In this document: one piece after another, positions 28,536-28,669 of the stretch | Position numbering within the stretch: position 1 is the first letter of the stretch | How the letters are laid out: each line of letters begins with the position of its first letter | Source: Escherichia coli | Lineage (GTDB): Bacteria; Pseudomonadota; Gammaproteobacteria; Enterobacterales; Enterobacteriaceae | Direction: 5' to 3' (one strand) | Assembly: GCF_003018255.1 (NCBI RefSeq) | Contig: NZ_CP027440.1 | DNA length: 64,000 nt | Made by a program: the position numbers and the translations under genes | The notes under the pieces: model-generated | What the model was told of the DNA's origin: nothing | What the model saw: the letters and a program-made list of their open reading frames with translations, nothing else | Databases searched by the model: none

Positions 28536-28669
28536 GTCGGATGCGGCGCGAGCGCCTTATCCGACCTACGGTTCGCTATCTCTGGCTGGCCTGATAAGAC
28601 GCGAACGCCGGCGCATCAGGCAACACTGCCAGTGTCGGATGCACCGCGAGCGACCGATCCGACTTACGG
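28536..28669. repeat. BIME cluster (three REP copies in alternating orientation) between znuB and ruvB
   Basis: GTCGGATGCGGCGCGAGCGCCTTATCCGACCTACGG, then GCCTGATAAGACGCGAACGCCGGCGCATCAGGCAAC, then GTCGGATGCACCGCGAGCGACCGATCCGACTTACGG. Confidence 0.65.

Follow-up and report, generated by a model that had tools for sequence, protein, structure and literature searches.

REP elements (palindromic units) and the BIMEs have been on record since the 1980s, and REP-PCR typing rests on their variation between strains. REPs bind IHF, Pol I and gyrase, and have been described as terminators or attenuators, mRNA stabilisers and topological insulators (PMC3333891; PMC1525189). The organisation of BIMEs is defined: BIME-1 has a conserved L linker, often with an IHF site, and BIME-2 consists of tandem copies whose number varies between strains (PMC3333891). 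Gyrase binding and cleavage are known for BIME-2 (Espeli and Boccard, 1997, as cited in PMC3333891). Two insertion sequences, IS1397 and IS621, are documented as REP-specific (PMC1525189). A REP that lies less than 16 nt from a stop codon can cause ribosome stalling and reduce translation, a class to which 260 of 496 REPs belong (Liang et al., 2015, as cited in PMC12306157).

The DNA analysed here, called the window, is a stretch of 64,000 nucleotides from Escherichia coli. Five of its intergenic sites are almost certainly ordinary E. coli REP elements: a BIME-2-type array between znuB and ruvB, a BIME-1 between cmoB and torZ, a single REP after pykA, and two degenerate or atypical pairs, at yebE-yebF and flhB-cheZ. 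The REP/BIME is an already known and well-described kind of element, and nothing is new in the identity of these copies. The position of the ruvB stop codon, which is part of a REP foot and is conserved as TAG or TAA across Escherichia, is only a mildly unusual detail.

REP Units of the Window

The window aligns collinearly with positions 1,915,684-1,981,327 of K-12 MG1655 at ~97.7% identity. The names of the flanking genes (znuB/ruvB, pyk(A)/lpxM, cmoB/torZ, cheZ/flhB) come from the RefSeq annotation under the matches and from the K-12 gene table and collinearity. Three larger indels distinguish the two sequences in this interval, an ERIC-like 125-bp element, the yecT region and IS1H, and no REP site is among them. 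At 32935/32936, in the nudB-aspS spacer, the window is without the 125-bp K-12 element, which is ERIC/IRU-like by eye. At 45992-46030, 39 bp stand where K-12 has ~770 bp, the yecV/yecT region that follows argS, and a hairpin with a T-run, of the terminator kind, is found downstream of argS at ~46005-46037. At ~61944-61951 the window is without the IS1H copy found upstream of flhDC in MG1655. The five REP sites correspond to K-12 positions 1,944,217-1,944,349 (znuB-ruvB), 1,954,429-1,954,526 (cmoB-torZ), 1,939,099-1,939,132, 1,929,923-1,930,009 and 1,966,3xx. K-12 REP sites absent from the window were sought in the collinear interval and none was found; the equivalent interval of the K-12 RefSeq record has no repeat_region feature.

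The units and their associated features, by position in the window, are as follows (edits are distances from the named consensus):

14239-14274, + strand: yebE-yebF Z2-like REP; 7 edits from Z2, 4 in K-12; weak hairpin, -12.9 kcal/mol
14289-14322, - strand: yebE-yebF Y REP; 7 edits from Y; ~26 nt downstream of the yebF stop (14350-14352); -20.3 kcal/mol, z -3.6
23415-23448, + strand: single pykA Y REP; 7 nt after the pykA stop (23405-23407); Y-core with 0 mismatches; 3 edits; -24.1 kcal/mol, z -6.2
28536-28569, + strand: REP1, Y unit with canonical CTAC tail; 19 nt after the znuB stop; 4 edits from Y; hairpin -18.8 kcal/mol, z -3.7
28584-28621, - strand: REP2, inverted Z2 unit; Z2 pattern with 0 mismatches; 7 edits from Z2
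28634-28667, + strand: REP3, degenerate Y unit; stem 28634-28663, tail TTAC 28664-28667; 10 edits from Y, 7 in K-12
28664-28666, - strand: ruvB stop codon TAA, in the TAG slot of the REP3 GTAG tetranucleotide
38622-38655, + strand: cmoB-torZ Y REP; 15 nt after the cmoB stop (38604-38606); 0 edits from Y; hairpin -21.3 kcal/mol, z -5.9
38656-38690, no strand: L linker of 35 nt; IHF-like core, a AATTCAATATATTG-type sequence, at 38668-38680
38691-38719, - strand: cmoB-torZ Z1 REP; 2 edits from Z1, 1 in K-12; hairpin -6.4 kcal/mol
49783-49799, + strand: 5' half of the flhB-cheZ Y REP, the remainder after a 13-bp deletion (CGCCTTATCAGAC) relative to K-12
49799-49836, - strand: flhB-cheZ Z2-like REP; 8 nt downstream of the cheZ stop (49841-49843); 10 edits from Z2

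Both strands of the window were scanned by edit distance to consensus strings of the Y, Z1 and Z2 types. These strings are consistent with the description in PMC3333891. The null consisted of 40 first-order Markov random sequences, matched in dinucleotide frequency. A consensus search of this kind had been proposed in the first-pass annotation, which described REP palindromes at four sites and a znuB-ruvB cluster of three copies overlapping the ruvB stop codon. The scan yielded 7 units at no more than 7-8 edits, compared with 0 in the 40 shuffles, and the Y-core pattern GGATGCGGCG-N4-CGCCTNATCC, with up to 3 mismatches, had 8 matches in the window where 0.03 were expected (the Z2 pattern, 1 where 0.00 were expected). 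All four sites were recovered where that annotation had placed them, REP1-3 among them, with the ruvB stop inside the 4-nt tail of REP3; a fifth site, yebE-yebF (14239-14322), had been overlooked. At 10 edits there are 12 loci in the window, against a null mean of 1.4 per shuffled window. Three of the ten units, the ruvB-proximal one and both at flhB-cheZ, are degenerate at this distance, where shuffles match too; they were accepted because they adjoin better copies or are orthologous to better ones in K-12. A looser pattern for palindromes, C[GT]GAT..ATC[CA]G, was dropped, with ~3 matches per shuffled window.

Each unit is a 30-40-nt imperfect palindrome of the kind that stands on a CTAC/GTAG foot, and lies in a gene's transcribed 3' region. 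The CTAC foot is seen in six units (pykA, cmoB Y, cmoB Z1, znuB REP1, yebF Y and the yebE-side Z2-like unit); REP3 has TTAC in its place, REP2 has GCTG (+ strand), and the flhB-cheZ Z2-like unit has no such foot. All units are intergenic and all five sites lie 3' of a stop codon, three between convergent and two between co-directional genes, with none at a divergent promoter.

In five well-preserved units the hairpin is much more stable than in shuffles (-18.8 to -26.7 kcal/mol, z -3.6 to -6.3). Folding is weak in four others: the Z1 and yebE-side units listed above, REP2 (-15.5 kcal/mol, z -1.5) and REP3 (-11.9 kcal/mol), which in the window folds no better than shuffles (z -0.9). When 12 Y units from the window, K-12, O157:H7, DP051 and E. 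albertii were aligned, 93.8% of the cells paired, compared with 33-42% in slid controls. Stem pair 2-29 is U-A, C-G or G-C at different sites, a compensatory change that is supportive only, the sample being small and its rows related.

A RAYT (TnpA_REP) gene near the REPs was sought in the annotation of the K-12-equivalent interval, which records no transposase gene other than that of IS1H, itself absent from the window. Because no such gene is nearby and REP2 and REP3 are without GTAG, the units are regarded as dispersed copies and not as part of a REPtron.

The window was also searched against Rfam, which has no REP family, and the sole hit overlapping REP sites was ES036, on the BIME-1 linker described below. 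Other matches at gathering score were MicL at 42634-42941 (-), SraC/RyeA with SdsR/RyeB on the opposite strand at 7417-7561 (+/-), and C0465 at 56187-56264 (+), all of them expected for a K-12-like region.

The znuB-ruvB Array

The znuB stop lies at 28514-28516 and the ruvB open reading frame at 28664-29674 on the - strand, and the 147-bp spacer between them reads Y>, <Z2, Y>. A terminator scan of this spacer found no intrinsic terminator. The REP1 stem carries a compensated pair, U-A here and C-G or G-C at other sites. The tail of REP2 is GCTG in the window vs GTAG in K-12. The stem of REP3 reads GTCGGAT...ATCCGAC, so that the ruvB mRNA runs CCG UAA GUCGGAU..., with no base between the UAA and the hairpin. 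Without the canonical GTAG needed by the REP-associated transposase, REP2 and REP3 are probably immobile relics. The ruvB frame encodes 336 aa, ending in PPEMP.

The array is strain-variable. Among 5,426 complete E. coli genomes, the 801-bp stretch 28200-29000 has an exact match in none; the best match is 98.9% identical, or 99.5% over the inner 441 bp, and two of the differences from this nearest allele fall inside REP2 and REP3. The other four REP sites each have a 100% match, every one in a different strain. As a query, znuB-ruvB matches at 2-3 places per genome, and at up to 13. Five alleles were aligned: the window, K-12 and 2014C-3075 have 3 units, O157:H7 F8797 has 5 and DP051 has 7. 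The length differences are multiples of a complete ~97-bp Y+Z2 repeat, and none of the alleles has lost the ruvB-proximal unit. REP3 is present in all five, and also in AR_0086. Changes in array length come from the gain or loss of such ~97-bp repeats.

Unit-number frequencies were taken from samples of the survey. Of 59 chromosomes sampled at even spacing, the 3-unit length is found in 43, the 5-unit length in 5 and the 7-unit length in 3; 6 are interrupted and 2 have other forms. Three of the 5-unit genomes are O157:H7 or similar, the 7-unit group includes BL21, and the interrupted group includes O25b:H4-ST131. A contiguous znuB-ruvB match is missing in 636 of 5,425 genomes (11.7%). In AR_0086, the one interrupted genome inspected, the large interruption is an IS1397 in the Z2 loop. 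REP units are targets of the REP-specific IS1397 and IS621. REP1 of the same genome (L004, 2868-2927) has a ~60-bp fragment inside, 95% identical to one IS621 end and flanked by duplicated GCCTTATCCGACCT; its sequence suggests a solo IS621 end, or a footprint within the REP.

The first-pass annotation had also held that REP copy number varies between strains. This is borne out by the 3, 5 or 7 units of znuB-ruvB, by presence or absence at cmoB-torZ and by a 13-bp indel at flhB-cheZ. The state of the znuB-ruvB array (3, 5 or 7 units, or an IS1397 insertion) is informative about lineage; the sampled O157:H7, BL21 and ST131 genomes have 5, 7 and an interrupted array, respectively.

The cmoB-torZ BIME-1

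At cmoB-torZ a Y unit, a linker and an inverted Z1 unit form a BIME-1 that is single-copy at the locus. By direct reading, the candidate IHF core (38668-38680) agrees with WATCAANNNNTTR at 8 of 9 specified positions. A G-to-T change in the window weakens the stem of the Z1 unit. An 801-bp query containing this BIME finds matches at a median of at least 37 places per genome, which makes it a high-copy dispersed repeat. At the locus itself the BIME is wholly absent from ~9 of 40 sampled genomes, and that roughly a fifth of genomes do without it speaks against an essential role at this place. Strain 4/4 has such an empty site, in which the hairpin AGCGCCCGTTTCCGGGCGCT directly follows the cmoB stop; the same hairpin is found at 38742-38761 in the window. 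EC361 (L008, 3420-4715) has a full IS621 in the Z1 unit, where it separates GTAG from GCC.

The Rfam family ES036 (CssrF sRNA) matches 38656-38698 on the + strand with 45.5 bits (gathering threshold 37.6) and coincides with the L linker. The family may therefore model a dispersed repeat and not a single sRNA gene, and the match is a caution for sRNA annotation.

The pykA, flhB-cheZ and yebE-yebF Sites

Beyond the single pykA REP, near 23516-23545, there is a hairpin with a T run that resembles an intrinsic terminator. The REP is found in ~91% of genomes; in the other ~9% the spacer holding both REP and terminator (23408-23545) is replaced by a ~7-kb island. REPs were sought at the far end of this pykA-lpxM island and elsewhere in it, and there were none. 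The island, seen in AL.H8 (L006/L091), is a sugar-utilisation one with a GH38 fragment, IS1, sugar ABC permeases, GH13, an amidohydrolase, an alpha/beta hydrolase and a Nif3-like protein.

At flhB-cheZ the 13-bp loss lies between two CGCCT.AT repeats. The 3' arm of the Y unit is gone and the 5' half is fused to the Z2-like hairpin, which in the sense of the cheZ mRNA is perfect (-26.7 kcal/mol, z -6.3). This short allele occurs in ~5 of 40 sampled genomes. The two yebE-yebF units stand tail-to-tail, and the length of the site is identical in 5,424 of 5,425 genomes.

The ruvB 3' End in Other Species

The ruvB locus was inspected in one genome per species, giving 18 Enterobacteriaceae loci. RuvB has 336 aa in all 18, with a PP-x-MP-like C-terminus in most and a different one in a few. 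Since the length is constant and the C-terminus mostly similar, the protein has not been remodelled by the REP. The stop codon occupies the TAG slot of the GTAG recognised by the REP transposase, as TAG in E. albertii and as TAA in E. coli. E. albertii has the same Y-Z2-Y array with the ruvB-proximal Y intact, and its TAG stop reads G-TAG-GTCGGAT, the canonical GTAG foot. In a divergent Escherichia genome the stop is TAA and the REP unit has decayed. REP-like units also occur in Pseudocitrobacter and two Citrobacter genomes, at 1-11 nt from the ruvB stop. The hairpin at the stop ranges in strength from -18.8 kcal/mol in E. albertii down to -8.1, the E. coli alleles lying between -11.9 and -16.7.

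In Cedecea neteri, Siccibacter, Hafnia and several Enterobacter isolates a hairpin with a T-run lies between znuB and ruvB. From its sequence it looks like a bidirectional intrinsic terminator. With terminator-like hairpins at this position in relatives, the Escherichia REP array occupies the terminator's place. Enterobacter cloacae (L017, 2512-2560) has no REPs here and has a different, repeat-looking palindrome, CCCTCTCCCGTAGGAGAGGGGCAGGGTGAGGGC, just past the ruvB stop.

Possible Roles

From the literature, IHF binding would belong to the BIME-1 L linker, here only at cmoB-torZ, and gyrase cleavage to BIME-2, here at znuB-ruvB, and not to every site. Placed between the convergent znuCB and ruvAB operons, the BIME-2 may be a gyrase site that buffers supercoiling, and the L linker of cmoB-torZ may be an IHF site. 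At the RNA level, REP hairpins would act as a barrier to 3'-to-5' exonucleases, thereby stabilising the message upstream, and would attenuate read-through at places that have no intrinsic terminator. At znuB-ruvB they may set stable 3' ends for both the znuCB and the ruvAB messages.

The distance from REP to stop codon is 0 nt for ruvB, 7 for pykA, 8 for cheZ and 15 for cmoB, all within the <16-nt rule; znuB (19 nt) and yebF (~26 nt) are outside it. By stalling the terminating ribosome, a REP at less than 16 nt would be predicted to lower translation of the upstream gene, that is of ruvB, pykA, cheZ and cmoB.

Alternative Readings

Stable stems at the 3' ends of genes are also what Rho-independent terminators would offer, and several other genera do have a true hairpin and T-run at the same znuB-ruvB position. 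It is nevertheless very improbable that the hairpins are gene-specific terminators alike by chance and not a dispersed repeat family: a T run follows none of the REP stems, the terminator scan of the znuB-ruvB spacer is empty, separate terminator-like hairpins stand beside the REPs at pykA and cmoB-torZ, and 30-34 nt of sequence identity are common to unrelated loci and to dozens of other genomic places. That the matches are merely chance GC-rich palindromes of intergenic DNA is harder still to credit. The three 10-edit units do fall in the range where shuffles give ~1.4 matches per window, but the closer units (7 at no more than 7-8 edits vs 0 in 40 shuffles) and the Y-core matches (8 vs 0.03 expected) have no counterpart in the null, and better copies of the degenerate units stand at the orthologous places in K-12 and E. 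albertii. The sites are best read as ordinary REP elements.

Among such elements REP3 could still have acquired a function of its own, as a selected translational attenuator of RuvB: the ribosome would stall at the stop, some ruvB mRNA would be cleaved, tmRNA would come to the rescue, and RuvB would be set relative to RuvA. The 0-nt spacing, well within the <16-nt rule, speaks for it, as does the persistence of the arrangement in all inspected E. coli alleles whatever the length of the array, in E. albertii and in the divergent Escherichia genome. The reading is doubtful, however, given that the hairpin in E. coli is weak and decaying (-8 to -17 vs -18.8 kcal/mol in E. albertii) and that most other inspected genera have no hairpin directly at the ruvB stop. 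Nor is proximity in itself remarkable, as about half of all REPs are no more than 15 nt from a stop (Liang et al., 2015, as cited in PMC12306157). In its fuller form the proposal is that the zero-spacing arrangement, kept in Escherichia while the array expands, contracts and takes IS hits, reflects a selected attenuator tuning RuvB from the SOS-induced ruvAB operon; on the sequences compared, this seems quite unlikely. If true, attenuation at ruvB would be a modest extension of a published mechanism.

Comparison with Known Systems

The five REP sites are worth masking or labelling, which guards against over-reading of the small open reading frames and hairpins inside them; their importance beyond annotation is small. 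With the described Y, Z1 and Z2 REPs of E. coli the units share the 30-40-nt palindrome, the CTAC/GTAG foot, an internal stem mismatch, the extragenic 3' location and a high copy number, and the unit at 38622-38655 is identical to the Y consensus used in the scan. Nothing essential differs from the canonical element. The relics of the window are REP3 with GTAA, REP2 with GCTG, the Z1 unit with its broken stem and the flhB-cheZ Y unit without its 3' arm.

Like BIME-2, the znuB-ruvB array has Y and Z2 units in alternating orientation, short linkers and a tandem number that differs between strains (3, 5 or 7 units). This likeness is one of unit types and arrangement. BIME-2 is a target of gyrase cleavage in vivo, and the znuB-ruvB array a putative one. 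The cmoB-torZ element agrees with BIME-1 (RIP/RIB) in its Y unit, its conserved 35-nt linker with an IHF-like core and its inverted Z1, and in having a single copy at the locus and many near-identical ones elsewhere. It differs in the stem-breaking substitution of the Z1 arm, and its linker is also claimed by ES036 (CssrF). IS1397 (IS3 family) and IS621 (IS110 family) lie inside these same BIMEs in other strains, and neither is in the window. Finally, with the REPs described as translational down-regulators by Liang, Rudd and Deutscher (2015), four genes of the window share a spacing of no more than 15 nt. Among them ruvB, whose stop codon is itself part of the REP tail, marks the extreme of the spacing range.
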